Shown in pieces: positions 10,602-49,186 of a stretch of DNA of 64,000 nucleotides. The DNA lies in the IMG/VR virus record IMGVR_UViG_3300036944_000898, positions 1 to 64,000 of that record; one strand, given 5' to 3'. This DNA is from a virus. The notes beneath the pieces were generated by a model, which saw only the letters and a program-made list of their open reading frames with translations, did no database searches and was not told the DNA's origin. The translations under genes were made by a program, and so were the position numbers. Positions within the stretch are counted from its first letter, which is position 1. Each line of letters opens with the position of its first letter.

Positions 10602-10602
10602 T

Positions 10603-11688: not shown

Positions 11689-11705
11689 TTAAAAACATAA
11701 AATAA

Positions 11706-12512: not shown

Positions 12513-12543
12513 TATTAATTACAAAATAAAAAAAATATAAAAA

Positions 12544-14502: not shown

Positions 14503-14516
14503 AAGTTAAAAAAAAT

Positions 14517-26382: not shown

Positions 26383-29300
26383 TTATTTATTTATTAATGA
26401 ATATCTTTGTTTATATGTATTCATAAATAATGATTTACCAGGTGCTAATTTAAAAGCATGGTTTAACATTATATTTTCATCTTTAGAATTTTCACTTAAC
26501 CAATCAAGATAACTTTCATTATCTTTAGGATTAAAATTAATAGGTGTCATAATATCGTTTATTACAGTAAATCCGTTTTGTAAAAACCTATTTGCTGCAA
26601 CAGGATTACTAATCATTCTATTTAACTCGGCAATATTTCTAAATTGAGAAAGTTCAGATTCTAATCTTCTAAATGCAAATAATAAAAAATATAGTTCATC
26701 ATCATCACCTGCATTAGCCGCCATTATAGCTCCTAAAAGTGGTAATATGATAGCTGTCATGGATACTTCAAAAAATACTTGTTTCAAATTAGCTTTTTCA
26801 TAATCAGAAAGATTTTTAAAATTTTCCTTAGTCATTTGTAAATTTAAATGTCTAATTAAAGGAAAAAACGTTCTAACAAAAGTAGTATAAATACCTTCTG
26901 TAAATTCTTGTTCTGCATTATTAAATGTTAAGTCTTCATCATCTAATTCATCTTTAGATTTATTTGCTGTACCTATACCTTTATATCTATATTGTGCTTG
27001 TGATAAAAAGAAGTTTTTAAACATTAAAGCCATTTTACCATACCATTTTTTAGATATTTCAGCTTTCATATTGTTATCATAAACACCATATAAATCTTCT
27101 ACTTTTTTCTTTAATAAATAGTTTATAGATTGTTTTCCTGATGTGTGATAATTATCAACTAAATTATATTCAGAATATGTAAAATAATCTTTTGTTTTTA
27201 AAATACCATTATCATCTAAATATAACATATCAAATATAGAAGCGGCATTTTCTTTAGTTGTAATATTACCTTCTTTATCAATATATTTATGTTCTTTATT
27301 CATAACAGGTATTGAACGTAACATTGCTTCTGTTAAAATAGAATTTAACCCGTGTTCTACAGATTCATTAATAAAATTAGTATTATGTAAAGACATCATT
27401 TCTTTAATAGTACTATTATTAAGAAAATCTTGTTTATTAATATTCATTCCACCAATAATATCGAACATATTTAACATTTGATTATGAAATGATTTTTTAA
27501 CAGGATTGGAAATATCTGCCATAATTTTAGGTAAATTTGCAGTATAATTTGCTTCAGCTTTAGCTAAATTTGATTTATTAATATATTTTCCACCAATTCT
27601 TAACATAAGCATCATAGTTTGACCATTAAGAAAATTGACAAAACCACTACCTATATTCAAAGACATACCTACAAAAGCAGCAGCTCCATTAATTCTAGAT
27701 GTTAATTTATTAGCATCTAAACTTCCAAATAATTTTTCTTCATTATAAGAAGTTACATCATATAAAGCTGTTTCTAGTATACCTTTGATTTTTTCTGCTT
27801 CATTACTAAATTCACCTGAGAATGTTTGACCTTGAACTTCTTCTTTTGAAAATATATTTTTAGCCCATTTACCAGAAAGTAAAGATTTCTTTTTATATTC
27901 TTTTTCTTTAGCAATATCTAAAAATAATTTTAATTTATTTTCATTAGCTGAACGATGTTTAAATGAAATAGAGTTAGATTCTTCAGCTCTATATACTGTA
28001 AATAAATCTAAAGACTGATCTTTAGATTCTAATTTACCTCTAAAATTAATTTGTACACGTTTAAGTTCTTCTCCTCTGTTATCAAAAGCTTGACCATAAT
28101 TTATATCGTCAACTTTAGTTTCTTTTAAATCAGTCCAAGCATCTTTAGCTTGACCTTTAAAATCACCTTCTAAAGTTCTTTCTTTTGCAGATTTAGTTTT
28201 AGATGGTAATTTATAATATTCTGCACCAAAAAATGTAGAATATAAACCACCTTTACCTTTATAATTTAATTCATGATTACTTTTAGTTTGTGTTCTAAAA
28301 AAATCTAAAACTTTTTCTTCTTCAGTAGATAATGGTTTATTTAAATATTTATTAGAAGGTTTTCTATTACCTAATTCATCAAACATAGTGTTATTTTTAA
28401 TCCATTTTTTATATTCAGGATCTTCTTTAACATTAAAGTCTTCATTATCTTTATTTTTTTCATTTAAAGAATTTAACATTTTATTGTAATCTTCTTTAAA
28501 TTTAATAGAATATTTACTTTTTAAATAATATCTATCTTCAGATTTATTTAACTCTAGTAAATTACCATATTTTTTAGACATTGAAACTGAATTATTAAAA
28601 TCAGAATATGATTTAAATATTTTATCATACTTAAAATTAATTGCAGTAATATCTTTTAATATAACATCTCTCATTTTACCAACAACATTAGCCATCATAT
28701 TTATTAAAGGACTATTAATATTTAATAAATCAGACCAAGTTTTAGCAAAACTTGTAATATCAATATAAGGATTATTTATTATACTTTTAGCAGCATCTTC
28801 TAAATCTTTTTTAATAGCTTCAGCATATTTATTAGACATTTGACTACCAACCCATTCTAATTTAGATTCTTTAGGATTTGTTAATTTATCATACTCTAAT
28901 GATAATTTATTTTTCCATTTGTTAATAACTTTTTTATTTGTTGAAGCATCTGAAAATAATTTAATTGCAGATTCTTTTTTAAGTTTTTTAATTTTAGCAA
29001 TTAAATCATCATGTGGTTTTGAAAGCTCATTTATTTTAGTTTTTATAATTCTAATTTCTAATTTATCTTCACGACTTAATGTTGAATCTTTTAATGTATC
29101 ATCAATTAATGATTTTATATCATCTAATAAATCATATGAAGCTAAATAATCTTCATAATTATTTGCGACATCTAAATAATCTTTATTAGATAATTGAGTA
29201 ATAGATTCATTTTCAATATTATTGTATAATTCAGAATCTACAATAAATTTATTAGCTTTAAAAAATGTTTTATCTACAGTATCTTTAACATCTTCAGGAA

Positions 29301-31218
29301 TTATAAATTCTCCTTTTTCATTTTTAAAACCATCAAAGTTTTTTACTTTAATATGTTTTTCTCCATTATAAACAACATCGATAACTTTAAATTTATTTTC
29401 TAAACCTTTTTCTAATTTATAAATTGCATTTTTAAAAGAAACCATATAAGCAGTAATAGCTTTAAATTTATTTAAACCAGATAACCTTTCTAATTCATTT
29501 TCTAAAACTCTAAATTCTTCTAAAAATTCTCCCGCTTTTTCTTTATTAGATTTTTTAGTTCTATTAATTAACTCAGCAATTTTACTTTTAGCTTTATTAA
29601 CTAAATGTTCAGCTTTTTTATCAATAGTTTCTAATTCATATGTTTCAGACGGTTCAATCTGTTTTTCAAATATTAATTGTTTTTGACTAGACATACCTTG
29701 ATAATCTCGTCTATCTGATTCTACAAAATCAATTACTTTTTCAATTAAATCATTAGTTTTTTTAGATTTAACTAGACCAAACAATCTTCTAATAGCATTT
29801 ATAAAATTATCCCAAAATCTATATCTTTTTTGTTCATCTAATTTTTTTAATTCAGCTCTAAATTTTGGATTAGCATATATTTCAGATACAAATTCAAATT
29901 TATTTGTAAAACCATAAAATCTTTCTTGACCATAAGTTTCAATATTTTGGTCAATTTGTTTTTGAAGATCATTGTGTGAAAATACATAATACGCTCTTTC
30001 AATAAAATTATTAAATTCTTTTTCTTCAAATGTTTGAGGATTTTTTAAAGCTTGTATTGTTTGAGCGTGAGCTAATTCATGTAAAAAACCTTCAACAACT
30101 TCTTTAGTTGTTATATTTTTAATTCTATTTCTACTTATTTGAATTGTGTTTGTATTATTTACAATTTGCATTAAAGTATTTTTATTACTTAATTGTTCAT
30201 CAGATACAAATTGAAATTTAGCACCAGTTCTACCAACTAATTTTCTAGCTTTTTGAATTAATTCTTTACCTTCTGGAGTAAAATCATTAAAATTATTAAG
30301 AATATTTTCAAGAATTTCATCTACAGTAATCTTACCTTGTTTATTATTAAATAAAATTTTATTATGTTCAGAAATATAATCTTTTTTTAATTGATTTACT
30401 TTATCTTCTATAAATAAAACACCTTTTAATAATCCTTTTTTAATTATATTTTCACTAAATATAGATTCGTTTTCTTCAGATTCAAATTTAGATAAATCTT
30501 TTTTAGTTGTTTCTTTATCATCTAAAACATCTTTAAAAGGCGCTTTATTTAAATAACTTTGTAAATTATATTCTTTTATTCTTTCTTTCCAACTTAAAAT
30601 ATGTTCAGAATTTAATCTAAAATTATTAGATTCATTTTCTAAATATTCATCTTCCATTGCATCAAATTCAGCATCTTCCATTGCCCAAGCCATATTAGAT
30701 GCTTTTTTAATATCATATTCTGATAAATTTGGAAAAACTTCTTTTAATATTTCTAAAAGATTATTATAATTTTGCAAATGTTTATTTTTAGTTTCTTCAT
30801 CAGAAGAATCTTTTGAAAATCTATAAGAATCTGCTAATTGGGCAAATACTCTAGTTGGTAATTTATTAAAAGCATTTTGAGAAATATATTTAGCTCCTTT
30901 TTCATTTGGATAAGGTCTAATTGTATTAGTTTCATCATATTCTTCTTTTGTTAATCTCGGATTATCTAATACAATATTATCTATAAAAATTTTAACATCA
31001 TCTCTATTAGATAAAGATTGTATTTTATTTTCTAAAGATTCTGAAATATTAGTAAATATTTTTTTAGATTGATTTAATTCATCAATAGTAGGAAATCTAT
31101 CTTCTATATTATTTTTACTTTGCCACAAACCTATTTTTGCAGCAGCAACAACAGGAGAAACATTTAATTCTCCTGCTATTTTAGCTACATCTGGATGATT
31201 TTTATTTATACAACTCAT
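26383..31218 (-). CDS. giant virion/ejection-type protein with zincin HExxH motif and C-terminal membrane segments
   Basis: 1611-aa ORF. FLHELAHAQT is encoded at 30067-30081. Hydrophobic stretches occur near the C-terminus (..AIILPLLGAIMAANAG..). Confidence 0.6.
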   Translation of the reverse strand: MSCINKNHPDVAKIAGELNVSPVVAAAKIGLWQSKNNIEDRFPTIDELNQSKKIFTNISESLENKIQSLSNRDDVKIFIDNIVLDNPRLTKEEYDETNTIRPYPNEKGAKYISQNAFNKLPTRVFAQLADSYRFSKDSSDEETKNKHLQNYNNLLEILKEVFPNLSEYDIKKASNMAWAMEDAEFDAMEDEYLENESNNFRLNSEHILSWKERIKEYNLQSYLNKAPFKDVLDDKETTKKDLSKFESEENESIFSENIIKKGLLKGVLFIEDKVNQLKKDYISEHNKILFNNKQGKITVDEILENILNNFNDFTPEGKELIQKARKLVGRTGAKFQFVSDEQLSNKNTLMQIVNNTNTIQISRNRIKNITTKEVVEGFLHELAHAQTIQALKNPQTFEEKEFNNFIERAYYVFSHNDLQKQIDQNIETYGQERFYGFTNKFEFVSEIYANPKFRAELKKLDEQKRYRFWDNFINAIRRLFGLVKSKKTNDLIEKVIDFVESDRRDYQGMSSQKQLIFEKQIEPSETYELETIDKKAEHLVNKAKSKIAELINRTKKSNKEKAGEFLEEFRVLENELERLSGLNKFKAITAYMVSFKNAIYKLEKGLENKFKVIDVVYNGEKHIKVKNFDGFKNEKGEFIIPEDVKDTVDKTFFKANKFIVDSELYNNIENESITQLSNKDYLDVANNYEDYLASYDLLDDIKSLIDDTLKDSTLSREDKLEIRIIKTKINELSKPHDDLIAKIKKLKKESAIKLFSDASTNKKVINKWKNKLSLEYDKLTNPKESKLEWVGSQMSNKYAEAIKKDLEDAAKSIINNPYIDITSFAKTWSDLLNINSPLINMMANVVGKMRDVILKDITAINFKYDKIFKSYSDFNNSVSMSKKYGNLLELNKSEDRYYLKSKYSIKFKEDYNKMLNSLNEKNKDNEDFNVKEDPEYKKWIKNNTMFDELGNRKPSNKYLNKPLSTEEEKVLDFFRTQTKSNHELNYKGKGGLYSTFFGAEYYKLPSKTKSAKERTLEGDFKGQAKDAWTDLKETKVDDINYGQAFDNRGEELKRVQINFRGKLESKDQSLDLFTVYRAEESNSISFKHRSANENKLKLFLDIAKEKEYKKKSLLSGKWAKNIFSKEEVQGQTFSGEFSNEAEKIKGILETALYDVTSYNEEKLFGSLDANKLTSRINGAAAFVGMSLNIGSGFVNFLNGQTMMLMLRIGGKYINKSNLAKAEANYTANLPKIMADISNPVKKSFHNQMLNMFDIIGGMNINKQDFLNNSTIKEMMSLHNTNFINESVEHGLNSILTEAMLRSIPVMNKEHKYIDKEGNITTKENAASIFDMLYLDDNGILKTKDYFTYSEYNLVDNYHTSGKQSINYLLKKKVEDLYGVYDNNMKAEISKKWYGKMALMFKNFFLSQAQYRYKGIGTANKSKDELDDEDLTFNNAEQEFTEGIYTTFVRTFFPLIRHLNLQMTKENFKNLSDYEKANLKQVFFEVSMTAIILPLLGAIMAANAGDDDELYFLLFAFRRLESELSQFRNIAELNRMISNPVAANRFLQNGFTVINDIMTPINFNPKDNESYLDWLSENSKDENIMLNHAFKLAPGKSLFMNTYKQRYSLINK

Positions 31219-31221
31219 ACA

Positions 31222-31575
31222 TTATTTTTTTAAAAATCTTAATTTATATAAAGTAGATGAAAGTAATTCAATAATATCATCACTAATTTGTTGAAGATAA
31301 CCATCTTCCAATGTTAATCTATAATCTTCTACAGATTTAACACATTCTTTTAAATATGGTATAATTTCAACACCTTCTTTTAAAGTTATTTTATAACCTG
31401 TTATTATTTTATATTTACCTTGATAAGATTCTATAAATCTATCTCTTAACTCAACTATTTCTTGATATAAATCATTCAAAGCCATATGATCTGAAAATTT
31501 ATCAGTCTGTAAATGAGCTATATGACTATTTATTTCTATATCAAATAGTAAACTTGCAAATTCTTGTATTTTCAT
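31222..31575 (-). CDS. small four-helix, Dps/ferritin-like protein
   Basis: SHIAHLQTDKFSDHMALNDLYQEIVELRDRFIE resembles the Dps H..W...G..F..H..F..Y..D..E pattern. ATG at 31575 overlaps the upstream TAA (TAATG). The track TTG start at 31584 is less likely. Confidence 0.4.
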   Translation of the reverse strand: MKIQEFASLLFDIEINSHIAHLQTDKFSDHMALNDLYQEIVELRDRFIESYQGKYKIITGYKITLKEGVEIIPYLKECVKSVEDYRLTLEDGYLQQISDDIIELLSSTLYKLRFLKK

Positions 31576-34500
31576 TATAAACAATTTTCAATTATGTGTT
31601 CTCTTTCTTCATTATTCATAGAATTAAAATCAGCTTCAGTTCTACCAGATTCAATCCATTTATCTTTAATTTCTTCCCAAAGTTGCTTATCTTGTTCAAG
31701 TTGATCAAATAAAGATAATTGATTAGGATTTTTATAATTTTTTAAAACATCTTCTTCTGATAATAAATTAAAATCTTTTGTATTTAAAAATAATCGTAAA
31801 GCTTCTTTTTCTTCAATTGATTTAGCTTTAATATAATCTTCATAAATATCTTTAATTGACATCTGACTATAATCATAACCATTATTATCTTCCTCTACAT
31901 AATAATTTGTTAAAAATTCTGTTTCAGATCCATTTTCTAAAACTCTTTCAGGATTATTAAAAGCTTCTTCAATATTATCTTTTGTAATAGTTTCACCTAA
32001 AACATTATCTAAATCTTTACCATATTGTTCTTTACTTAATAAAGTAAATTTATTTTTAGGATTTAAAAGTTGTTCTTTAATATTATTATCATCAATTTGT
32101 TTAAAAAATTCATCAGAATATTTAATAACTTCAGATTTAACTTCTTGTTTAGTTTCAATAGATTGTTTAATTTCTTGTTCTTGATTAACAATAGGTTGTT
32201 CTGTTTTTAACATATTTTCATCAAAGTTATTTAAATCTAATTCTACGTTATAATTATTAGATACAGGTGTATTTTTGATTTTAACATATATAAATTTATC
32301 TGTTTTAGATATACCAACTAATCTATAAAATTCTTCATTAACTTTAATAAATTGACCTTTATTTGTTGTAGATTGTAATACAAATTTATTATTAAGAGTT
32401 TCTTTTAAATCTGAATCAAAAACATTTTTAACAATACTTGTATCTGTTAAATTATTAAGATAAAATTTATTTTCAAATTCTTCAAAATTAGATTTATTAA
32501 ATATATCTTTAACTTTATTATTAATATTTAATTTAATAAAATATTGATAAGGAATATAAGAATAAAATTGAGTTCTATTTGAATTAAATCCTGAAGTTAA
32601 AAAACTATATTTAACTAATTGTTCTGCAAAATCTGGGTGATCTTCAAATAATTGTTCCCAAGAATTAGTAAATAATCTTTGAAATTCTAAAGATCTATCA
32701 GAATTATTTAAACCAATTTTATCATTAGAAATATTAAGGTTGTCTATTATAAAATATTTATCTTTAACATCTTCTTTAAAATTTTGTAAAGTTTTATGAG
32801 TATTATCTAATATATTTTCTTTTTCAGTATCTTGTATATCAAAAACTTTAGAATAAATATATGTTTTAAATTGTCTTGATAATTTTTCATAAATTTCTTC
32901 TTTTTTAGAATAAGATTTAGTTATATCATCGACCATAACACTTAACAGATTTCTAACATTTTCATTAGACATTGGAAACATTGAAGAATTTTTTTCTAAA
33001 ATATCTTTAATTTTTAAAAGATTATTATAATATTTAGATAAAATAGTATTTTGTAACTTAGAATCAAATCCTTTTATAATACCTTTAATAGGTTTATTAT
33101 TTTCATCTGTAGTTTTTTCACTATTTATTTTAATTTCATCAAGTAAACTTTCTAAATAGAATATTCCATTTGGATCTTTACCAACACCATTAACATCTAA
33201 TTTACCAAAATCAACAATAGTTTTTAAATTTTTACTAGAATTTTGAATATTTCTAAATTCATTCAATAATGTGATTTGAAAATTTAAATTAGTATTTTTT
33301 TCATTTTTAATTTGATTTCTAAAATATTGTAAATCTAATTTAAATTCACCATACTGACTTATCATTCTATCAAATAAATTTAAAGATTCTGGTTTATAAA
33401 CTTGATTATAAAAACTAGAAGCTAAATTAAAAAATTTATTATAATCTTCTTCACTATTATTTAAACGTTTAATAACTTCAGTTTTTACATTATCTCTTTT
33501 CTTTAATATATCAACATTATCTTCTAATTCTGAAATATTTAAATCATTAAAATATTGTACATATAAGGATGAATAAATTGGTTTACCACCTTTTTCTTCA
33601 TCACCAATAAAATCTTGAATAATAAATTGTTTAAACTTATTAAAAGTATCACCTGATTGATTATCAAACAATCCTTCATTATCTTGTTGATATTGATTGT
33701 ATCTTGAAATAATAGGATTTGCTAAAAAATTTACTACATATAACGGATGTACACCCATTCTAATCATTAAATTACCTACATTAGTAGTAGATGTAGTCCA
33801 GTTACCTTTTGAAATATAAGGATCTTTAGCAATATCCACAAAAGCATTAAGAATAGTTCCTAACGTTTCACCAATTTTAACTTTTTTAATTGTTTTTTTA
33901 AATTCTTCAATTCTTTCTTTTGGTGCTTTTGAATCAATCATTTCAGAAACATAATAGTTTAAATCTTCTTCAGATAATTCTTCAGAATATTCCATATCTA
34001 ATTCAGTTTCTTTATTAATCATATTATAATTACCCCAAGTGAAATTAGCTAAATTTGAAATTATTAATTTACCAGTTCTCCAAATATCAGTCATAGCATT
34101 AGCTTCCATACCAACACCTGCTTTACCACCTAAAAAAGAATATCTTAATTTAACATCATCTCTAGGATTCATAGCATTCATAAAAGAATTAGATTCTTCA
34201 GGTTTTAAATTATTTATTTCTTTTTTAATGAAATCATTATCAATAGATTTCATTAAATCACTATATACTTCAGGATTAGTTAATACTGATTTATATATTT
34301 CAATAAGTTTATTTTGCTCACCTTTAGCTCCTTTTGTAGAATATTGTAAACCTGTTGTTGTAAAATTTAAATCTTTAAATGTTAATTTTACTTGTTTAGA
34401 TTCTGAATTATTAACAATAAAATTAATTAATTCTTTTCTTATATTTCTTAAAAATAAAGTTTTATCTTCTTTATTTTCAACATTATTATATTCTGAAATA

Positions 34501-37500
34501 AAATCACTAGATAAAACGTCATTATCTATATTATCAAATTTATCTAAAAACTTTTTATAATTAGATAATGTTTCTTCATTATTTATTCCTCTTAAAACTT
34601 TTTCAACTTGTTCAAATACTTCCTCTTCTTTATGTACAACTTGCTCATATTGAGGAAACATTACGTACATTTTATCAATATCATAATCTGAACCTGTTTT
34701 AGAAGTAATACCAACATAAGCTACAATTGTATCACCTGCTGATTCAGGAAGTATTCCTGCAATTTGTAATGAATCATTTGATGGTAATCCTTGATTAGGA
34801 ATTCTATAACCAATAATATTTTCTTGAATTCTTTTATCTATAATAGGATGTCCTCCATTATAACTTATAAATAATTCATCTACAGTAAAATCTTTCCAAT
34901 TAGGAATATATTTAGCTATAAATGATGCTGGTACAAACACACTACCTGGTGTTACATTTCTAGAACCATCTTCATTAGTTCTAATCATTGGTGGATTTAA
35001 ACCTTTAATATTTGGATTTAATATAATACCACTTTTACCTTGTTTAATATTATTATAAGTTAAACCAAAGTCTGCCATTTGAATAAATGAACCACCATTA
35101 GTTTGAATTTTAATAACACTTTTATTAATCATACTAGCAAATATTTGAAATATTTTACCAGTTGTTTGAGGTATTCCAAACAAAGAAGTTTCAGCTTCTA
35201 ATGCTTTAATAACATTTTCTGAACCACCTCTAGATTTTAATTCACTAATTAATGATTTATAAAATCTTTTAGTATTAATAATATTTCCTTTATCATCAAT
35301 ACCTGCTTTACTGATTAATCTTTTATATCCTTCATCACTTAAATTACCAATAGTTTTAACTAATTCATCGTTTAATTCTTGACCTGTTATTTTTTTACCT
35401 TTATATGTAAAATTAGAATTATTTAAATAATGTTTAATACCCGCTAAAATATTTTTTTGAATTTGTGAACCTACATCTGTAGATTTAAAATTCTTAGTTG
35501 GTAAATCTTGTTGAAGTTTCCAACCATGATTATTTAATGTTTGAACATTAAAAGATAATTGTTCGTTAGGTAAGAGATTACCATTATTATCGTGTATTTT
35601 AGTAGGTGTTATTGAACCAACTTTAACACCATCAAAAGTAATTAATTCTTGTATTTGATCTTTATAATCTAAAGTTTCACCTTTATCATTTTTAGTCATT
35701 TTATCAAAAACTCTTTCTAAGTCAGTACCTTTAATTAAAGACTTAGATAATACAGCTTGAGAATATTTTAAATATGTAGGTTTACCATTTATTTTATAAA
35801 AATAAACACCTTTTAAAGGTTGTGCTGCTACTTTTAATTCTTCTTTGGTATATATTTCATTTTTATCAAAATTCATTTTTTTAAATACACTATCGTGTAT
35901 TTCAGACCATTCTCCTAATCTTTGTTTAAGAAACTTCCATCTTTCAGGTGTAATCCATGCTTGAGCATCTGTACTATTAATATCAGACAACATTTCTATT
36001 GTATGTTCATCTATTCCATTAATTTCATTATCTTTCTTTAAAGCTTCTAAAAATGGACTATCTTGTATTACTGCTTCTATTGTAGCAATATTAAAAGATT
36101 CTTCACCTGGTTTTAAAATTAAATATTTACCATCAGTATATGTAGCAGGTACTCTCTTTTTAAAATCTACAGAATCTTTATAGTAAGAAACATCACCAGT
36201 AAATAATTTACTAAATTCAATATTATTAGAAATACCATTAATCATATAATCAATAGCCATTTTAGTAATAGCATTACTTATACCGTTTGGTGTATTACTT
36301 TGAGTGTATTCATCTAAAATATTAATATCTAGTAATTTATTAATATAAAGACTATTTTCTACTTTAATTAAACCTAAACTTAACATTTCTTTTAATGTTT
36401 TTCTAGCTTCAAATGTAATCATTGTTTGAAGATAATTATTAAATTTATCTTCTAAACCTATTTTATTTAAAGTAAAATCAGTTAAATCTTTAATTTTTAA
36501 AGTACCATTACTATTGTAAATAATATCTACTATTTCTTTTTCAATATTGGATTTAGCACTACCATTATTTAACTTATCAAAATATTGTGATTTAAAAGCA
36601 TTACCATTAAAAAATTCTATTGATTTTGGATTTTCTAAAAATTTTTTATAATTATAATGATAATGTGGTGTTAATTTAGAATAATCATTATTTTTAATTG
36701 CTTCTTCAACTTCTTCTTTAGCGACTAAAGCTCTTTTTAATTCAGATAAATAATAATTAAAATATGTTTTTTTAACTTCATCTGACAATTCAAACTCATC
36801 TAATTCAACATTATATCCTACAAAACTTTTTAATCTTTTAATTAAACTTTTAAAAGTAAATTCTGTAGATTTATCAGCTTGTGTAATTGTTCTTACAAAA
36901 CTTTGAGTTTTTAAAACAGAATTAATATTATTAATAAAATAATCTTTAAAACTTAAATCTGTTGTTTTTTTAAATTCATCTTTAGTACCAGATAAAGTTA
37001 TTTCACCAAGTATTCCAAGTTTTACTTTTTCAAGATTAGCTCTACCTATTTCAACAAGTTCTTTAAATGATTTGTCTTTATTTTTAGAATCTTTTAATTC
37101 AAACCATTCTTCTACCCATCTAGAGCTTTCTTGATATGGGTCATTATAATAGTTTTTTAATAATATAGATGGATCTTTTTTCCATCTTTCTAATTCCATA
37201 TGTAAATGAGAAGGATTACTAAAAACCCATCTTTTTTCTCCACCAATTCTTAAATTAACATCAGACATATCGTTATTAATAAAAGCTTGTGCTCTTATTA
37301 ACTTGTTAATTTCATCAGTAGATTGAAATGTTTTACTAATATTTATTTCAAGTTTTAAATTATCATTAATATTTTTTAATACATAATTATCTAATTTTGA
37401 AATAAGATTGTTAATTTTATTAAAAATTTCAATTCTATCTTTTTCTGAAAGTTCTTTAAGATTTGTATTTAATGGAAAATCTAAGTAATAATTAAAAGCA

Positions 37501-38822
37501 TCGTCTGAAATATTTAAACCTAAATTTTTTAATAATTGTTGTGTGTATTTTTTATAATTTTCAATTTTTTCAACGTTACTTTTATCTTTATTATTTAAAA
37601 CAGACGCTTTATTAAAAACTTGTTTAACTTCCGCTGTAATTTTAGAAAGATAAGGTTTTAAATCTTCTCTTATTTTATTATCACCTAATGTAAATTTATT
37701 ATTAAAAGCATTAATAAACATATCTTTTACAATATTAATTTTATCAATACTATTTGATAAATCTATTGTATTTTGACTAAAACCTTTATCTGTTTTAGAA
37801 TATTTTTCATTTACAAAAGTATTTTTAGCTTTGTAAAAACCTTGAATAAATTCATTTCTAAAATTTTCATCTTTATTATCTATTAAAGATTTATAAACTT
37901 CTTTTAAATATGGAAAATAATTTGAAAATTCTTGTATTTTATTTAAATAAATATCATATAAATATTCATTTTCTAAAGGTATTTCATTAGATAAAATATC
38001 TTGTAATTTAGAATAAACAACATCAAAATCAATTAATGTAAAATCATCCCAAATTTCATCTTTTTTTTCTGTATTATTAAGTAAACTTAATCTTAATTTA
38101 ACATTAGTAGTTACTTTAGATTTACCAGATCTTTCAAAAGATGCTTTACCTATAACACCTTCTCTATTATTTTCTAAATCTTCTTCAATATCTTCATCTT
38201 CTTTAATATCAATAGTTAAATCTTTAAATTTTTGAATAACTAAATCTTTTAATTCATCAATGTTTTCTAAAGCTTCTTCTAAATATAAAAGTCTACCGTA
38301 AGCATCTGCTGCTTCTTCTTCAGTACCAGTTTCAGTAATATCTTCTAATTGTTTGATTTTTTTATTTATTTCAAAAACAATAAATTTATCAATTTTAGGT
38401 AATGAATTAGTTGTTGAAAAATCAATATTATTAAAATTAACATTTAAATGTCTTTTAATATAAGATGCAACAAGTCTTGAAGTAACATTTTTAATTTGTT
38501 CTCCAGTCCATATTTTAGAAATACCTTTAGCAGAAGATGGAAAATATGATCTATTATTATTTTTATCTAAAAAATAATATTTATTTTCATCTTTATCAAA
38601 TATTAATAAAGGTTCACCATTTTCATCTAATCTTTCATTTTGAATACCTTTTTTATAAGCATCCACATAATTAAAACCAAATAATTTATCAAATGTTTTA
38701 TCTTCAAACCAATTATAATAAAAAGTAGCTAACTGTTCATTACCGTTAGCTACTCCATTATAAATAGTCTTAAATAAAATAGATTCTCCTTTATTAGTTT
38801 TACTAATTTTTATACATCCCAT
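31575..38822 (-). CDS. giant virion protein, putative two-barrel (QDE-1/RDR-like) RNA polymerase
   Basis: 2415-aa ORF. GYRIPNQGLPSND-x27-GSDYDIDKMYV (34674-34805) mirrors the R-x-P..D / GSDLDGD signature of RDR-type polymerases and NADFDGDQM of beta-prime. Confidence 0.5.
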   Translation of the reverse strand: MGCIKISKTNKGESILFKTIYNGVANGNEQLATFYYNWFEDKTFDKLFGFNYVDAYKKGIQNERLDENGEPLLIFDKDENKYYFLDKNNNRSYFPSSAKGISKIWTGEQIKNVTSRLVASYIKRHLNVNFNNIDFSTTNSLPKIDKFIVFEINKKIKQLEDITETGTEEEAADAYGRLLYLEEALENIDELKDLVIQKFKDLTIDIKEDEDIEEDLENNREGVIGKASFERSGKSKVTTNVKLRLSLLNNTEKKDEIWDDFTLIDFDVVYSKLQDILSNEIPLENEYLYDIYLNKIQEFSNYFPYLKEVYKSLIDNKDENFRNEFIQGFYKAKNTFVNEKYSKTDKGFSQNTIDLSNSIDKINIVKDMFINAFNNKFTLGDNKIREDLKPYLSKITAEVKQVFNKASVLNNKDKSNVEKIENYKKYTQQLLKNLGLNISDDAFNYYLDFPLNTNLKELSEKDRIEIFNKINNLISKLDNYVLKNINDNLKLEINISKTFQSTDEINKLIRAQAFINNDMSDVNLRIGGEKRWVFSNPSHLHMELERWKKDPSILLKNYYNDPYQESSRWVEEWFELKDSKNKDKSFKELVEIGRANLEKVKLGILGEITLSGTKDEFKKTTDLSFKDYFINNINSVLKTQSFVRTITQADKSTEFTFKSLIKRLKSFVGYNVELDEFELSDEVKKTYFNYYLSELKRALVAKEEVEEAIKNNDYSKLTPHYHYNYKKFLENPKSIEFFNGNAFKSQYFDKLNNGSAKSNIEKEIVDIIYNSNGTLKIKDLTDFTLNKIGLEDKFNNYLQTMITFEARKTLKEMLSLGLIKVENSLYINKLLDINILDEYTQSNTPNGISNAITKMAIDYMINGISNNIEFSKLFTGDVSYYKDSVDFKKRVPATYTDGKYLILKPGEESFNIATIEAVIQDSPFLEALKKDNEINGIDEHTIEMLSDINSTDAQAWITPERWKFLKQRLGEWSEIHDSVFKKMNFDKNEIYTKEELKVAAQPLKGVYFYKINGKPTYLKYSQAVLSKSLIKGTDLERVFDKMTKNDKGETLDYKDQIQELITFDGVKVGSITPTKIHDNNGNLLPNEQLSFNVQTLNNHGWKLQQDLPTKNFKSTDVGSQIQKNILAGIKHYLNNSNFTYKGKKITGQELNDELVKTIGNLSDEGYKRLISKAGIDDKGNIINTKRFYKSLISELKSRGGSENVIKALEAETSLFGIPQTTGKIFQIFASMINKSVIKIQTNGGSFIQMADFGLTYNNIKQGKSGIILNPNIKGLNPPMIRTNEDGSRNVTPGSVFVPASFIAKYIPNWKDFTVDELFISYNGGHPIIDKRIQENIIGYRIPNQGLPSNDSLQIAGILPESAGDTIVAYVGITSKTGSDYDIDKMYVMFPQYEQVVHKEEEVFEQVEKVLRGINNEETLSNYKKFLDKFDNIDNDVLSSDFISEYNNVENKEDKTLFLRNIRKELINFIVNNSESKQVKLTFKDLNFTTTGLQYSTKGAKGEQNKLIEIYKSVLTNPEVYSDLMKSIDNDFIKKEINNLKPEESNSFMNAMNPRDDVKLRYSFLGGKAGVGMEANAMTDIWRTGKLIISNLANFTWGNYNMINKETELDMEYSEELSEEDLNYYVSEMIDSKAPKERIEEFKKTIKKVKIGETLGTILNAFVDIAKDPYISKGNWTTSTTNVGNLMIRMGVHPLYVVNFLANPIISRYNQYQQDNEGLFDNQSGDTFNKFKQFIIQDFIGDEEKGGKPIYSSLYVQYFNDLNISELEDNVDILKKRDNVKTEVIKRLNNSEEDYNKFFNLASSFYNQVYKPESLNLFDRMISQYGEFKLDLQYFRNQIKNEKNTNLNFQITLLNEFRNIQNSSKNLKTIVDFGKLDVNGVGKDPNGIFYLESLLDEIKINSEKTTDENNKPIKGIIKGFDSKLQNTILSKYYNNLLKIKDILEKNSSMFPMSNENVRNLLSVMVDDITKSYSKKEEIYEKLSRQFKTYIYSKVFDIQDTEKENILDNTHKTLQNFKEDVKDKYFIIDNLNISNDKIGLNNSDRSLEFQRLFTNSWEQLFEDHPDFAEQLVKYSFLTSGFNSNRTQFYSYIPYQYFIKLNINNKVKDIFNKSNFEEFENKFYLNNLTDTSIVKNVFDSDLKETLNNKFVLQSTTNKGQFIKVNEEFYRLVGISKTDKFIYVKIKNTPVSNNYNVELDLNNFDENMLKTEQPIVNQEQEIKQSIETKQEVKSEVIKYSDEFFKQIDDNNIKEQLLNPKNKFTLLSKEQYGKDLDNVLGETITKDNIEEAFNNPERVLENGSETEFLTNYYVEEDNNGYDYSQMSIKDIYEDYIKAKSIEEKEALRLFLNTKDFNLLSEEDVLKNYKNPNQLSLFDQLEQDKQLWEEIKDKWIESGRTEADFNSMNNEEREHIIENCL

Positions 38823-38825
38823 ATT

Positions 38826-41800
38826 TTATATATTACATACTTTATTAACAACTTCATTTAATTTCTCAAAATTAAATTCTTGTTTTAATTGTTCAAATTG
38901 ATCTAAAACATTCATAGATTTTGGTTTAAAATCTAAATTGTCTTTTGCAAATTTTATTATTTTAAATTTATCTTTAATATTTGTTATATTTTCAATGTTA
39001 GACAAAGATACGAAATTTTCTTCAATATTCCTAATTTTTTCTTCAATTTCTTTTATTCTAACATTAAAAACAGCTTTTAATGAAGCTATTGGTGCTTTAT
39101 CACGATTAGAAACTTCAGTTTGAAGTTGTTTTTTTAAATCTTCTAATGATTCAGTTACTTCATAACTTTCACCAGTATCAGGATCTACAACAGTTTTAGT
39201 TAACTTAAAATTAGGATTAGTACCAAAAGCATTTGTTTCTTCAGGTTCATTTTCTAAGGCTTTTAGTTCTGCATCATATTCAGCATTAATTTCTTGTTGA
39301 TTTTGTAATTTGCCTTCATAATCGATTTTTACATAATCTTCTTTAATTAATTTTTTATTTACACCCCATTTTTCTAATTCTTCCTGTCTTCTTCTTTCTA
39401 TATCAGCTTTTTTAGCTTCAATATTAGATTGAGGTTCATTATATACAATTTCTTTTGATAAATGTATTTCTGTATTGTCAATTTCTTTTTCTTCTTTAGA
39501 AACAGTTTTATTATCTTCTAAATTAATAACATCATTATTTAAATAAATATTACTATAACCTTCAAACATATCTTTATTAATAGATACGTTTGTACTAACT
39601 AAAGCATTACCACTTTCATTATCAAAATTACCAATATCAAATACATGTTTAATATATTCATCATTATTTAATTTATCAGCTTTTATATTAGTTTTTTTAT
39701 ACATTATAAAATTAACTAAATGATTTAATCTTGCTAATTCATTAGTATCTAATTCTGATTCATCATTAATTAAAGCATCTATATTATTGTTTTGAAATCC
39801 TATAAACCCAATACTAGATAAATTCATTTCATAACCAATAGAACCATTTTCTTGTAAGTCTTCATTAACTTTTTGAATTAAACTTCCTAAAGTAAGATTA
39901 CCACTATTATCAATAAATAATTTAGTAATTGGATTGTTATTTTGACTAAAAGTAATATATTCTATAATTTCTTTAAGTCTAGTAATATTATTAGCTTTTG
40001 AAGATAATTTAATTTCAGAATTTAATATATCAAAAGCTTTTTTACCAATATTATCTTCTATAAATTTAATAAATTTATCATCACTTAATACATTTTCACC
40101 TTCATTATTTTTTATAGTTTTAGACAATAATGCAAAAAGTTGAACTGTTGATTTAGCTTTATCTCTAGTAATTCTTTTATTATTTAATTTAATAGGAACT
40201 TTTTCACCATTAGGTCTAGTTACTACTAAAAATAAATCACCACTATGAAATGAGTTTACAACATTAAAAAAACTATCAACAGCTATTTGTCTAGTTTTAG
40301 TATGAACTAATTGTTTAGAATGATTAACAATGTATGAATTTTCTTTGATATAATTAATTTTTTGTTCATTAGTCATACCATTAAAAACACTTAATTTTAA
40401 TACATTATTATTTGTAGAATTATTATCTAAGTTTAATTTACCCTTACCCTGACCTTGAACAGAACCTTTAAATTTAGTAAAATCACCTTTATTGTCAATT
40501 AAAGCTTTTATAATAGATTTACGTAATAGTAATTCATTTTTAATAAAAATATCATTTTCAGCTACATTATTTGTTTTAGCTTTTAAAAATGAAGAAGCTT
40601 TTTCTTTACCATTATTTAAAGTAACTTGTATTGGTAAATAATTTTCTAACCATTCTTGATGTTCTTTTAAAAATTCTATTTCTGAAGGTATTAATAAATT
40701 TCCATTTTTTAATTTTGTAAAAATAGCTAATATAGTAGGTTGACCTGTAATATATTTTAAATCACCTAAACTAAAAACTACATCATCTTTAGTTTTATCT
40801 CTAGGTTCTTTTTCAAACTTTTTAAATATATCACTAAAAAAGTTTTGAATTTTATGACCTAAAGTATTATTTTCTTTAGGTGTAACAACTTCTATACTTG
40901 TAAAAGAATTTAATATATCATTATCTTTCTCTTTTCTAATAGAATCATCTTTAGCTAAATCTTCTTTATTTATACCTTCTAATTCAGATAATTTAAAATC
41001 AGATTTATCTTCAACTTTTTCTTGTGTAGGTAATGTGTTAATTTGTTCTTCATTTAAAAGTACAATAGCATCTTTTACTTCTTCTGGAATATCTTGTTCT
41101 TTTAAAAATTCACCTAAATCTTCTTGAGTAAATGTAGGATTACCTTGTTCATCTAAACTTTGGTCAATCATATCTTTAATCTCTTTTTCTACTTCAGCAA
41201 CTTCATTAACTTTTAAAGCAGAATCTATTTTATCGTCTTCTGTTATTTCAGGTTTTTGAAATACTGTATTTTCTTCTTTTATTTGTTGAAATAAATCTTC
41301 TTTTTCTTTTTTTAATGTTTCAAGTTCTTGATTATTTACTTCTGAAGTTTTTGCTTTATTTTTTTCGGAAGAGATAGTAATTTCATTTTTTGTATTACTG
41401 TCTTTTTTGTCGACTGTTTCATTTTTATTTATTTTTAAATTATATAATAATGCTTCTATTGTTTCTAAATTACTATATGCTTGATTTAAAACATCATTTT
41501 CTTCTTTAGTGTTTTTATCATTATATAATCTTACTGTACGTTTAAAAGCATCTATTAACCATAATGATAATTGTAATTCTTGAGATTTAGTTAAAATTTT
41601 ATCTTCGTATAAATTATCTAAAGCTTCTGCTACAATATTTGTCATATTAGTTTCCCAAATAGTATCTAATATAGCATTAAGATTAGAATAATTATTTTCA
41701 AGTTTTTCAATTACTTCTTCAGTATTTTCAATTTCTTGACGATATTTTAGTTGATTTCTTTTAATTTCAACAGCAGTAATTAATTTTTCATTTTTAATTT

Positions 41801-44534
41801 CTTGAGATGGTTTATTAATAGGTGATAAAGAAATAATATTTCCTTTACTATCAATATTAATAATATATTTTATATCATTAACTGTTACAGAATCTTCTGT
41901 AATATCTGTAATATTATATTTAGTATCTAATGTATCAAGTTTAAAAGAATTTATATCTTCAACAATTATTTCATGAATTGTATTATCATCATGTAACTCA
42001 TATCTATTATCATTAATTTTAATTAAAGTACCTTTAATATTACCATTTAAAATTACTCTTTTATTTAAATTTTCTAATAAAAATATTTTTTTATTTAATT
42101 CTTTAATTCTGGGATCTTCAACTGGTTTAGTTTTTTTATTTTTTGTAGGTATTGATTTATTAGTTGTAGTTGATGTCGTTGTATTACTAATAGGAGTATT
42201 TACAGGTGTGTTAGATAAAGGTGATGTTGGTACTACTGGTGTAGTCTTATTTGTAGGGCTAAATGCTGCTAATAATTCATCAGGAGGCATTTCATCTTTT
42301 AAAATATCTTCTTTTTCAGAAAGATCTTCAATATTATCTTCTTCCTTTGATAAAAAATCATCATTTATTTTTTTATTGTCAAAATAATTTTCTGATATTT
42401 CAATACTAGTTTCTTTTAATTTATCTTCTAATTTATTTTTATAATCTAAAAGTTTTTTATATGATTCATTTTTAAAAGCATGTTGTTCTTTCTTTTTATT
42501 TGTAAAAGATTCTGTAGTATCTGTATTATGAACATAATCATTAATTAATTCATCTGTGGTTACTTCATTTAAACCATGAATATTATTTAATTGTTCTAAT
42601 TCTTTATTTACAGATTTTAATTTATTTTGAACTTGTTCTTTTTCCATTTCAGCTAAAGCATAAGAACTACTTAATCTATTAAAATATTCAGCTTTAGCTA
42701 AATCTAATATTTTTTGTTGTTCTTTATTTTTAGCTTTAATTTTAACATCAAATCTTTTATTTATAAAATTAGTATAAAAATCATATTTTTTAGAAACATT
42801 TTCTGCTGTTTTAATTACTTCTTCTTTTCTAGATTTAATTATTTCAAAATCTTCAGAATTTTTAACTTCATCTGATTCTAACATTTTATCATAATATTGA
42901 GTTAAAGCATCAATTCCAATTTCTCCACTTTTTACAAATGGTAAAATTACATCTTGAATTGTTTTGTTTCTAACTTTTTCTAATGTTTCTTCATTACCAC
43001 TAGTTAAAGCTTCATCATATTCGTCAAATCTATTACTTAAAGCATCTATTGTTTTAAATTTTTCAATAATTTCTTTTTTACTAACGGATCTTTGATTATT
43101 ATAATTATAAGAAACATTTCCTGAAGGGTCTGTTAACGCTTGTAATGTTTGGTCATATCTTTGTGTTAAAGATACAGCTTCATCACTTTGTTTTTTATTA
43201 CGAACATCTTCTTTTCTACCTTGATAAACAGACATTGAAGAACCTAATAAACCTCCTAAAAATATAGCTTTTTGTCCATCAACTGAAGATATAGTATCCA
43301 AATAAGCTTCTTTTAATCCTTTAGGGTCAAAATCATCAAAACTTAACAAACCATCTCCTTTTAAATTATTTTTTTTAGCTTTGTTTTTAAAATAATTTTC
43401 AACAGTAGTTTGTGATGCTTCCTCTACAAAACCTTCAGATAATGTAGAACCAGCCATTCTTTTACCGCTATTTTTTAAAAATTCTTTAGCTCCATATTTA
43501 GACATAAATTTACTAGCCCCTTTACCAAACATGATAGAGGATTGTATTGCATTAGGAATAGTTAATAAAGCAACATTAGATACAAACATATTTTTACCAA
43601 GAATTGCTTTTTGAGTATTAAATTCTTGTTCAGCTTGTTCCATTGTTTTACCGGAAGATAACACATTATCTATAAATTCATTTTTATTTTCTTTTTCAAA
43701 AGAATCCATTGCCATTCCAGATTCCGCAGCTGCTTCTAAATAAGTATTAGCTGTTGTTGCTGCAATCATATCAAAATTTTCAACAGTTAATCCTAATTGT
43801 GAAGCTTTTTGAGCACCTTGCATTAACTTTTGAAATTTAGTACCTTTACTACCAAGTGATAACGCTACTTCTGAAGTACGTGCTAATTTTGAACCTAAAC
43901 CTAAACCTTTTAATATTGCACCAGGTACAAGCATTGATGCCATAAAACCAATACCATCAGCTCCTTCTGTAGCCCAAAAATCTACAGAAGAGATATTATC
44001 CCAAAGATTACCTTCTTTTACTGATTTTTTAACATATATGGGTAAAGCCTCATTATTTACTTTTTCATTTAATTCTGTAATACTTTTAATCCAACCGTTA
44101 TTAAATGCTTGTTCTGTAAAAGAATATTCATTTTTACCTGTAATAGCGTCTGAAGCTTCTCCATATAAACCACCACCTAAACCACCAACATATCCTGGAA
44201 TTTTAGCTATTTCAGAAATAATTTTAGTACTAATTCTAGGTGATAATTTTATAAGTTTATTTAAACTACTTTGATTATTAGCTCTTAATTCACCAAATGG
44301 ATCATTTGAATTTGTATCACCAATACCACCATAAATAGTATGAGGATTTTCCCAACCTTGTAAATAATCTTTATTACCAGAAGTGTTAAAAGCTTCTATT
44401 TTTATATTATTAGGATTGGTTTTATTTTTTTCTTTTAAATATGCTTTTACTCTAGGATCAACTTTAAAACCATCGTCATAAGTTTTAGCTATTGTTTTCT
44501 TAGATATTGGTTTTCCAATTTCTTCTTCTTCCAT
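38826..44534 (-). CDS. giant virion/ejection-type protein
   Basis: 1902-aa ORF with Gly/Ala-rich hydrophobic N-terminal segments, a T/P-rich linker (..PVVPTSPLSNTPVNTPISNTTTSTTT..) and long K/E coiled-coil-like stretches. Confidence 0.6.
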   Translation of the reverse strand: MEEEEIGKPISKKTIAKTYDDGFKVDPRVKAYLKEKNKTNPNNIKIEAFNTSGNKDYLQGWENPHTIYGGIGDTNSNDPFGELRANNQSSLNKLIKLSPRISTKIISEIAKIPGYVGGLGGGLYGEASDAITGKNEYSFTEQAFNNGWIKSITELNEKVNNEALPIYVKKSVKEGNLWDNISSVDFWATEGADGIGFMASMLVPGAILKGLGLGSKLARTSEVALSLGSKGTKFQKLMQGAQKASQLGLTVENFDMIAATTANTYLEAAAESGMAMDSFEKENKNEFIDNVLSSGKTMEQAEQEFNTQKAILGKNMFVSNVALLTIPNAIQSSIMFGKGASKFMSKYGAKEFLKNSGKRMAGSTLSEGFVEEASQTTVENYFKNKAKKNNLKGDGLLSFDDFDPKGLKEAYLDTISSVDGQKAIFLGGLLGSSMSVYQGRKEDVRNKKQSDEAVSLTQRYDQTLQALTDPSGNVSYNYNNQRSVSKKEIIEKFKTIDALSNRFDEYDEALTSGNEETLEKVRNKTIQDVILPFVKSGEIGIDALTQYYDKMLESDEVKNSEDFEIIKSRKEEVIKTAENVSKKYDFYTNFINKRFDVKIKAKNKEQQKILDLAKAEYFNRLSSSYALAEMEKEQVQNKLKSVNKELEQLNNIHGLNEVTTDELINDYVHNTDTTESFTNKKKEQHAFKNESYKKLLDYKNKLEDKLKETSIEISENYFDNKKINDDFLSKEEDNIEDLSEKEDILKDEMPPDELLAAFSPTNKTTPVVPTSPLSNTPVNTPISNTTTSTTTNKSIPTKNKKTKPVEDPRIKELNKKIFLLENLNKRVILNGNIKGTLIKINDNRYELHDDNTIHEIIVEDINSFKLDTLDTKYNITDITEDSVTVNDIKYIINIDSKGNIISLSPINKPSQEIKNEKLITAVEIKRNQLKYRQEIENTEEVIEKLENNYSNLNAILDTIWETNMTNIVAEALDNLYEDKILTKSQELQLSLWLIDAFKRTVRLYNDKNTKEENDVLNQAYSNLETIEALLYNLKINKNETVDKKDSNTKNEITISSEKNKAKTSEVNNQELETLKKEKEDLFQQIKEENTVFQKPEITEDDKIDSALKVNEVAEVEKEIKDMIDQSLDEQGNPTFTQEDLGEFLKEQDIPEEVKDAIVLLNEEQINTLPTQEKVEDKSDFKLSELEGINKEDLAKDDSIRKEKDNDILNSFTSIEVVTPKENNTLGHKIQNFFSDIFKKFEKEPRDKTKDDVVFSLGDLKYITGQPTILAIFTKLKNGNLLIPSEIEFLKEHQEWLENYLPIQVTLNNGKEKASSFLKAKTNNVAENDIFIKNELLLRKSIIKALIDNKGDFTKFKGSVQGQGKGKLNLDNNSTNNNVLKLSVFNGMTNEQKINYIKENSYIVNHSKQLVHTKTRQIAVDSFFNVVNSFHSGDLFLVVTRPNGEKVPIKLNNKRITRDKAKSTVQLFALLSKTIKNNEGENVLSDDKFIKFIEDNIGKKAFDILNSEIKLSSKANNITRLKEIIEYITFSQNNNPITKLFIDNSGNLTLGSLIQKVNEDLQENGSIGYEMNLSSIGFIGFQNNNIDALINDESELDTNELARLNHLVNFIMYKKTNIKADKLNNDEYIKHVFDIGNFDNESGNALVSTNVSINKDMFEGYSNIYLNNDVINLEDNKTVSKEEKEIDNTEIHLSKEIVYNEPQSNIEAKKADIERRRQEELEKWGVNKKLIKEDYVKIDYEGKLQNQQEINAEYDAELKALENEPEETNAFGTNPNFKLTKTVVDPDTGESYEVTESLEDLKKQLQTEVSNRDKAPIASLKAVFNVRIKEIEEKIRNIEENFVSLSNIENITNIKDKFKIIKFAKDNLDFKPKSMNVLDQFEQLKQEFNFEKLNEVVNKVCNI

Positions 44535-48523: not shown

Positions 48524-49186
48524 TTAAATTAAATCTACTAAGTGTTTACTTATTCTTATTGCATTTTTTTCTTCATCTACAATTGCTATTATAACATTTT
48601 CATTAAATACAATCCATTTATTTTTATCTAAATCATATTTATAATAAGCATTAAATTTATCTTTTATTGATTTATAATTTCTCCAAGATAAAATTAATTC
48701 TAGTTCATTTTCATAAAATTCTCTTGTAACTACTCTATATGTAGATTTAATTGTTGAAGAATTATTAATACTTAATGTAGGAATTTGTTTTATATTTAAA
48801 AATTTAGCTGCACTTAATAAAGAATTAAATTCTTTTATTAAATTACCTCTTAAATCTAATAAACATGTTTTTTTACAAAGAGTTTCAGCACCTCCACAAT
48901 TAGTAAACATTGTTAAATTATATAATTCATCAATATTATATTTTTCAAGATAATCTGCTTCTATTTTAAATAATTCATTTCTATCTATATTTTCAAAAAC
49001 CTCTAAAATTTCATAACTAAACTTTTCAACACCATATTTATTATATGAAGATTGTAAATGTTTATTATTATGTTTATTATTTTTAAGATTGTTAAAATGT
49101 TGATTAATTCTAGTAGTAATATTATTACTAGAACCTATATAAATTTTATTATTTACTAAATTTTTAATACTGTATATTCCTATCAT
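48524..49186 (-). CDS. free-standing GIY-YIG homing endonuclease
   Basis: GIYSIKN..KIYIGSS..R..QH..N..H.N..LQ..YNKYG..E..YN: the full GIY-YIG module, plus a ~120-aa C-terminal putative DNA-binding part. Confidence 0.8.
   Translation of the reverse strand: MIGIYSIKNLVNNKIYIGSSNNITTRINQHFNNLKNNKHNNKHLQSSYNKYGVEKFSYEILEVFENIDRNELFKIEADYLEKYNIDELYNLTMFTNCGGAETLCKKTCLLDLRGNLIKEFNSLLSAAKFLNIKQIPTLSINNSSTIKSTYRVVTREFYENELELILSWRNYKSIKDKFNAYYKYDLDKNKWIVFNENVIIAIVDEEKNAIRISKHLVDLI

Follow-up and report, generated by a model that had tools for sequence, protein, structure and literature searches.

A probable injected RNA polymerase of an uncultured crAss-like phage and conserved cysteines at the facing ends of three giant proteins

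Does an uncultured crAss-like phage bring its own RNA polymerase into the host cell? This question is raised by a protein of 2415 amino acids (aa) encoded on IMG/VR virus record IMGVR_UViG_3300036944_000898, of which positions 1 to 64,000 were analyzed. This stretch, the window, represents 64 kb of a genome of probably ~100 kb and is very AT-rich, the GC content of the phage being 24%. A sequence-only reading of the window had noticed in this protein a signature of two-barrel RNA polymerases and had proposed that the phage injects the enzyme for early transcription. The analysis reported here led us to the view that the protein is very probably an orthologue of gp66 of phage phi14:2, that is, an injected single-chain two-barrel DNA-dependent RNA polymerase. 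By its sequence, the polymerase is a new, diverged member (~30% identity) of a published family and as such ordinary.

Homology to phi14:2 gp66 and the catalytic motif

The polymerase gene is located on the minus strand (31575..38822) and consists of an uninterrupted open reading frame (ORF). When the PDB sequences were searched in full with phmmer, a single significant entry was obtained, 6VR4 (chain 6VR4_A; E=7.3e-176), which is gp66 of phi14:2 (Crassvirales, Steigviridae); the match comprises three collinear stretches spanning query residues 43-2141. A PDB profile search also returned 6VR4, with E=0. Comparison with phi14:2 g066 by blastp gave E=4.8e-178 and 28% identity over 2240 columns. 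In the catalytic block, GSDYDIDKMYVM of the window protein is aligned with GSDFDIDKMYVM of gp66. For pairwise alignment by MAFFT the gp66 sequence was taken from the annotated phi14:2 record, and an identity of 30.6% was obtained across 2055 aligned residues. The two proteins are collinear over their full length and their genes have the same neighborhood, which bears out the earlier assignment of the protein to the two-barrel RNA polymerases of the crAss type.

The functional elements of gp66 were used as published and mapped by pairwise alignment. The catalytic metal-binding motif DYDID (aa 1379-1383; 34674..34688, minus strand) is aligned with 1361-DFDID-1365 of gp66 and is identical at four of five positions. 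Its aspartates are encoded exactly where the sequence-only reading had placed them, with GAT codons throughout the triad (D1379 at 34686-34688, D1381 at 34680-34682, and D1383 at 34674-34676). The motif lies within the conserved block of the second double-psi beta-barrel (aa 1338-1389; 34656..34811, minus strand), which contains the invariant columns named below. The peptide quoted earlier for this block, GYRIPNQ...DKMYVMF, was recovered letter by letter; its span of 34656-34811 is slightly wider than the 34674-34805 originally given. Around the motif, the sequence is IGYRIPNQGLPSNDSLQIAGILPESAGDTIVAYVGITSKTGSDYDIDKMYVMFP in the window protein and IGYRIPNQGQSSNDPLQIVGILPEAMGDTIVAYTEIPTKTGSDFDIDKMYVMLP in gp66. 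Aligned residue for residue, the catalytic block of the two proteins has the consensus IGYRIPNQG..SND.LQI.GILPE..GDTIVAY..I..KTGSD[Y/F]DIDKMYVM, so that both contain GSD[F/Y]DIDKMYVM with Ile at position 4 of the motif. In terms of the gp66 family, DYDID agrees with a DFDxD motif carrying Ile or Val at position 4.

The window protein also has counterparts of the gp66 connector, bridge helix, and trigger loop (all minus strand). The connector between the two barrels (aa 1099-1246; 35085..35528) corresponds to gp66 1095-1238 with 48/144 identical residues, the bridge helix equivalent (aa 1552-1582; 34077..34169) to gp66 1529-1559 with 13/31, and the trigger loop equivalent (aa 1649-1687; 33762..33878) to gp66 1598-1636 with 21/39. 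As far as a sequence comparison can show, all catalytic elements are conserved, and nothing found at this level contradicts the polymerase assignment. For gp66 itself, Mg-dependent activity was demonstrated, and each aspartate of the motif was shown to be essential since its exchange for alanine abolished activity (Drobysheva et al., bioRxiv 10.1101/2020.03.07.982082). A 173-aa ORF with a GTG start is located antisense to the polymerase gene (34039..34560, plus strand); it is probably a chance ORF.

Conservation was analyzed in an alignment of 39 sequences comprising the window protein and metagenomic relatives. Residues Y1339, R1340, I1341, P1342, Q1344, S1348, L1358, P1359, T1376, G1377, and D1379 were invariant. 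Within the core (residues 850-1720), invariant and near-invariant columns were located mostly between ~890 and 1380; they include YRIP.Q, LP, TG.D, and a lysine in the first barrel. Among 80 relatives from IMG/VR, 73 motifs could be scored: DFDID was found 59 times, DFDVD eight times, and DYDID six times. The last variant is also present in Flavobacterium phage Fpv1. DYDID thus recurs in independent relatives including Fpv1, and these sequence comparisons therefore indicate that Tyr at motif position 2 is a conservative, tolerated variant.

A model of residues 850-1720 was built with AlphaFold2 (mean pLDDT 72; 80-94 across both beta-rich blocks), in which the beta-rich blocks are predicted to flank the aligned connector region. 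Comparison of the core model with the PDB by Foldseek, a check that had been suggested by the sequence-only reading, revealed 6VR4_A as the only significant match (E=6.5e-50; TM 0.60, query-normalized). The next matches were below threshold (E 0.08-2.8) and represent beta-prime-like RNA polymerase chains of AR9, PhiKZ, E. coli, and Streptomyces.

Two further systems were considered for comparison. Neurospora QDE-1 and the eukaryotic RNA-dependent RNA polymerases (RdRPs) of RNA interference resemble gp66, according to its published structure, in having a single chain, two double-psi beta-barrels, a connector of ~140 residues, and three Mg-binding aspartates. In contrast to QDE-1, the window protein has Ile instead of Gly at motif position 4, and the phage protein has twice its length; ~1600 residues of the phage enzyme are without known fold relatives (Drobysheva et al., 10.1101/2020.03.07.982082). 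The virion RNA polymerase of coliphage N4 (Schitoviridae) follows the same logic: the giant enzyme travels in the capsid and, once ejected, transcribes the early genes. The N4 enzyme, however, has an unrelated, T7-like, single-barrel-free fold.

Gene neighborhood and alternatives to an injected polymerase

The minus-strand genes of the window are arranged in the order muzzle, GIY-YIG endonuclease, cargo 1, 663-aa protein, 1902-aa protein, 2415-aa polymerase, 120-aa DUF5856 protein, and 1611-aa protein. The crAss muzzle protein (49262..53722, minus strand) was identified by Pfam with E=1.5e-200, and Pfam also recognized crAss cargo protein 1 (46528..48426, minus strand) and ring protein 1 (53764..54492, minus strand). 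Upstream of the polymerase gene, the 1902-aa virion protein (38826..44534, minus strand) is gp67-like (blastp against g067, E=1.8e-67); the 1611-aa protein encoded downstream (26383..31218, minus strand) is gp65-like (blastp against g065, E=9.6e-69). The latter carries the zincin motif HELAH at residue 380 (30067-30081, minus strand) inside a weak Pfam SprT-like match (residues 336-407), and gp65 of phi14:2 was also described with a zincin motif (Drobysheva et al., 10.1101/2020.03.07.982082). The order of muzzle, cargo 1, gp67-like protein, RNA polymerase, and gp65-like zincin, together with a converging replication block on the opposite strand, is that of phi14:2, in which the same genes flank the polymerase gene behind the muzzle and cargo genes.

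Differing from phi14:2, the window harbors an additional gene between those of the polymerase and the gp65-like protein (31222..31584, minus strand; 117-120 aa). It belongs to DUF5856 (Pfam E=1.2e-19) and to PHROG 858 (E=1.6e-21), which is labeled 'starvation-inducible transcriptional regulator'. Its translation probably starts at the ATG in 31573-31575, overlapping the stop codon of the polymerase gene. A homologue with 80% identity occupies the same position in a metagenomic relative (L003; Logan SRR25392342_22159); the gene is absent from phi14:2 and from a further relative, L002.

Ribonucleotide reductase and an SNF2-type helicase are encoded in the converging plus-strand block. No plus-strand ORF in the window exceeds 652 aa. 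Among the ten largest are enzymes of the nucleotide-metabolism, helicase, and amidoligase types; none of the ten has an RNA polymerase domain according to Pfam, and three were without any Pfam match. The T7/N4-type Pfam family RNA_pol (PF00940) had no match in these ten ORFs or in the proteins of 2415, 1902, 1611, and 1486 aa. The earlier statement that the early block lacks a T7-like RNA polymerase gene hence holds within the 64-kb window. Scans of the whole window with Rfam (gathering threshold) and for tRNAs revealed nothing.

Further genes were observed in the same region. A free-standing GIY-YIG homing endonuclease gene (48524..49186, minus strand; Pfam E=1.5e-11) is located between muzzle and cargo 1; no gene was called at this position in L002 and L003. 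A 310-aa protein with 3'-5' exonuclease/RNase H-like domains (55745..56677, minus strand) adjoins the tail genes in the structural block. The presumed early block contains a cluster of peptide-ligase-type genes (9675..16265, plus strand), with members of the types weak ATP-grasp, peptidase C26/GATase, phiEco32-like COOH-NH2 ligase, class-II glutamine amidotransferase, and amidoligase_2. The cluster may serve to make or modify a small peptide or metabolite.

The polymerase assignment was weighed against three other explanations. DYDID is the sole DxDxD of the 2415-aa protein; at this length and with 7.0% Asp, chance alone would yield ~0.81 such motifs, and another one, DADFD, occurs in the muzzle protein. 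A bare DxDxD is therefore not significant, as ~0.8 would be expected anyway, and the motif might have occurred by chance in a large structural or cargo protein devoid of polymerase activity; in line with such an origin, Pfam and PHROGs give no polymerase annotation. It is the surrounding homology which raises the motif above chance. Together with ~50 flanking residues, it aligns with the proven catalytic site of gp66; moreover, the homology is full-length (E=7e-176), the core model matches 6VR4, and the motif block is invariant in relatives down to ~30% identity. We regard a chance origin as effectively refuted.

The polymerase assignment has several limits. Identity to gp66, the sole characterized member, is just 28-31%, and Tyr at motif position 2 in place of Phe is a minority variant (6 of 73 motifs). 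The region aligned to the cleft-blocking, self-inhibiting domain of gp66 (aa 203-237; 38112..38216, minus strand) is poorly conserved, with 10/38 identical residues, and its assignment is tentative. In the MAFFT alignment, the protein has three insertions relative to gp66 after the bridge helix and trigger loop (residues 1619-1645, 1718-1770, and 1781-1801); the window protein is 235 residues longer than gp66, and residues 2271-2412 near the C-terminus were left unaligned and have no gp66 counterpart. No meaningful match for the 2415-aa protein was found in Pfam or PHROGs, and PHROGs likewise gave none for the 1902-aa and 1611-aa proteins; since these collections contain no models of the family, their silence is not evidence against the polymerase assignment. 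Finally, the direct link to QDE-1 and related RdRPs drawn in the sequence-only reading was not reproduced: QDE-1 was not recovered by phmmer, by the PDB profile search, or among the 50 Foldseek matches listed. This result fits the published identity of 8.6% between gp66 and QDE-1 (Drobysheva et al., bioRxiv 10.1101/2020.03.07.982082), and the relationship is known only from published structural superposition. From the Tyr residue, the lineage-specific insertions, and the unmatched C-terminal segment one might assume a gp66 homologue which has lost catalysis and serves as an ejected scaffold or channel component, the early genes being transcribed by the host RNA polymerase; gp66 itself was crystallized in a conformation incompatible with catalysis (Drobysheva et al., 10.1101/2020.03.07.982082). 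Yet the protein has kept all three aspartates with the invariant residues around them as well as the bridge helix and a trigger loop with 21/39 identical residues, and DYDID recurs in independent relatives including Fpv1, which makes a loss of catalysis very improbable. Only a shade less improbable is an active polymerase used exclusively inside the cell, either for middle and late transcription or in an RNA-dependent manner like QDE-1, and neither packaged nor injected. The gene is located in the late-type structural strand and would hence be expressed late, and QDE-1 relatives are able to copy RNA. On the other hand, the orthologues in phi14:2 and crAss001 are virion components, the gene is located among tail and cargo genes, and late expression followed by packaging is precisely the scheme of phi14:2; furthermore, the pattern of terminal cysteines, which the polymerase has in common with both other cargo proteins, points to joint handling of the three. 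We therefore retain the injected gp66 orthologue as the preferred explanation.

Cysteines at the facing ends of three giant proteins

The 2415-aa polymerase contains only two cysteines, Cys3 (38814..38816, minus strand) and the penultimate residue Cys2414 (31581..31583, minus strand). A single cysteine is present in the gp67-like 1902-aa protein (Cys1900; 38835-38837, minus strand) and in the gp65-like 1611-aa protein (Cys3; 31210-31212, minus strand). In the three giant proteins of the window, cysteines are thus confined to the ends which face each other, with four junction cysteines in ~6000 residues. The same placement was found in phi14:2, namely C1797 of 1797 residues in g067, C3 and C2179 of 2180 residues in g066, and C3 in g065.

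Non-redundant termini from 80 IMG/VR loci were examined for this pattern. An N-terminal cysteine within the first eight residues of the polymerase was found in 44/44 relatives and a C-terminal cysteine within the last six residues in 49/49. The gp67-like protein carried a C-terminal cysteine in 39 of 40 labeled relatives and in 17 further unlabeled upstream ORFs, and the gp65-like protein an N-terminal one in all 64 relatives. Most proteins of the trio in these loci have no further cysteine. Control ORFs from the same loci had terminal cysteines in 0/60 cases at the N-terminus and in 1/60 at the C-terminus. At the outer ends of the trio, that is, the N-terminus of the gp67-like and the C-terminus of the gp65-like protein, no cysteine was found in any genome listed.

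The pattern also extends to cr111_1 and to several Suoliviridae and Intestiviridae genomes, and it is kept in crAss001 (L090), even though gp47 is encoded there on the strand opposite to gp50 and gp49. A cause at the nucleotide level, for example translational coupling, was considered for the junction cysteines and rejected because crAss001 keeps the pattern despite this opposite orientation. Relative to gp47, the crAss001 genes of the polymerase (gp50) and of gp49 have the inverse orientation (L090 11120-29724); the genes of the trio are not adjacent there, and the single HExxH motif is located in gp47 and not in the protein downstream of the polymerase.

Genomes with fused proteins were also compared. 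Fpv1 encodes a 4401-aa fusion with a single cysteine at residue 4400, and two metagenomic relatives (L050 and L059) encode fusions of polymerase and gp65-like protein of ~3520 aa with a single cysteine at residue 7. In four Suoliviridae genomes the cysteines of the fused junction are absent and the pair of the other junction is kept. The pattern is weaker in cr273_1 (Suoliviridae), in which the last cysteine of the fused protein is located 49 residues from the end. The Intestiviridae fusions crAss002 and cr8_1 contain many internal cysteines, so that their junctions allow no reading.

A disulfide-stitched head-to-tail chain with the RNA polymerase as the middle link, a kind of 'polyprotein' cleavable by reduction, may account for this distribution; judging from the positions of the cysteines, we consider such a chain a tentative proposal with somewhat less than an even chance of being correct. 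The tail of the crAss001 virion makes extensive use of disulfides (Bayfield et al. 2023).

The terminal cysteines could instead serve other purposes than pairwise disulfides. Exactly four junction cysteines are present per set of three proteins, as would suit a shared metal such as a zinc clasp made by four termini, and zinc hooks and clasps formed by cysteines from different chains are known; lipidation or another modification of the ends is also conceivable. At most fused junctions, however, the cysteine pair is gone and the pair of the other junction is kept (Fpv1, the four Suoliviridae genomes, and L050/L059). Such independent loss upon fusion fits independent pairs better than one site with four ligands, and a generic modification of protein ends is made less likely by the absence of cysteines from the two outer termini. 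Metal binding or modification is therefore regarded as unlikely, and the disulfide-linked chain is kept as the working proposal.

Neither the crAss001 virion paper (Bayfield et al. 2023) nor the gp66 preprint nor the other literature searched mentions the terminal cysteines. This pattern is the sole part of the present analysis that might be new to a specialist.

Relatives, introns, and a proposed course of infection

A megablast search with the polymerase gene against 50,697 phage records gave no match, this collection being without a close cultured relative. The best cultured relative is phi14:2 with 35.5% identity in the core. Metagenomic relatives are much closer: core identity was 80% for L010 (IMGVR_UViG_3300020050_010026) and 92% for P0001; across the N-terminal 1464 residues, the latter reaches 94%. 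The gene order of the window is found in uncultured relatives as well and, in L003, comprises the DUF5856 gene too. The C-terminal region of the polymerase (aa 2183-2415; 31578-32276) has little or no counterpart in gp66. Its last ~50 residues (QLSLFD...EER.HII.NCL) are common to the window protein and L003, and the tail ...EER.HII.NCL is shared by the uncultured relatives. The segment preceding this shared tail is variable: it is acidic in the window protein, whereas L003 (15008-18244) carries an insert with a weak cpYpsA/SLOG-like domain in the C-terminal extension.

In contrast to the uninterrupted gene of the window, the genes of L002 and L003 carry a group I intron of ~0.93 kb in the DNA encoding DxDxD (L002 14107-15062; L003 ~14069-15037). 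The intron contains a 214-aa LAGLIDADG ORF and was also found in L022, L023, L041, L042, and L081. Both ends of the insert gave partial matches to Rfam Intron_gpI (37.6 and 24.5 bits; gathering score 50), and the exons can be joined in frame as GSD|FDVD in L002 and GSDFD|IDKM in L003, which restores DFDVD or DFDID. The two insertion sites, one behind the first and one behind the second Asp codon, are thus separated by 6 nt. About 45 of 73 matches in a large protein search stop at residues 1379-1381. This search returned only proteins of ≤1500 aa, and intron-split genes are therefore over-represented; in an unbiased survey at the DNA level, the interruption was found in ~5 of 78 IMG/VR loci. 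Recoding of a stop codon and a true split of the gene were both considered for the truncated homologues and rejected on the same evidence, namely the partial Intron_gpI matches, the LAGLIDADG ORF, and the in-frame joining of the exons. Yutin et al. 2021 had already drawn a LAGLIDADG intron endonuclease for this block of genes. Group I introns in relatives are a common cause of the gene being annotated as two truncated proteins.

gp66 is present in the virion of phi14:2, and early transcription of this phage is resistant to rifampicin (Drobysheva et al., bioRxiv 10.1101/2020.03.07.982082); an orthologue was detected in crAss001 virions, too (Bayfield et al. 2023). By analogy, we infer packaging, injection, and rifampicin-resistant early transcription for the enzyme of the window. 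Copies of the polymerase would be made late in infection and packaged into the capsid in a self-inhibited state. At the next infection they would be threaded through the tail into the host, before or along with the DNA. After refolding in the host cell, the polymerase would transcribe the converging plus-strand early block (replication and nucleotide metabolism) without the host polymerase, hence early transcription would be rifampicin-resistant; middle and late genes would then be taken over by the host RNA polymerase. If the terminal cysteines form disulfides, C1900 of the gp67-like protein might be linked to C3 of the polymerase and C2414 of the polymerase to C3 of the gp65-like protein. 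Linked in this way, the three cargo proteins could move as a single chain, to be dismantled under the reducing conditions of the cytoplasm with release of the active polymerase. Such a chain would set the stoichiometry as well as the order of packaging and ejection.

The polymerase adds one diverged sequence to a family of published structure and role and is useful for annotation and for defining the invariant residues. An explanation is still sought for the packaging, ordering, and ejection via a narrow tail of the ~0.7 MDa of giant cargo proteins in crAss-like phages (Bayfield et al. 2023). The disulfide-linked chain is a concrete hypothesis for these processes, and the pattern of terminal cysteines could matter more than the polymerase itself.

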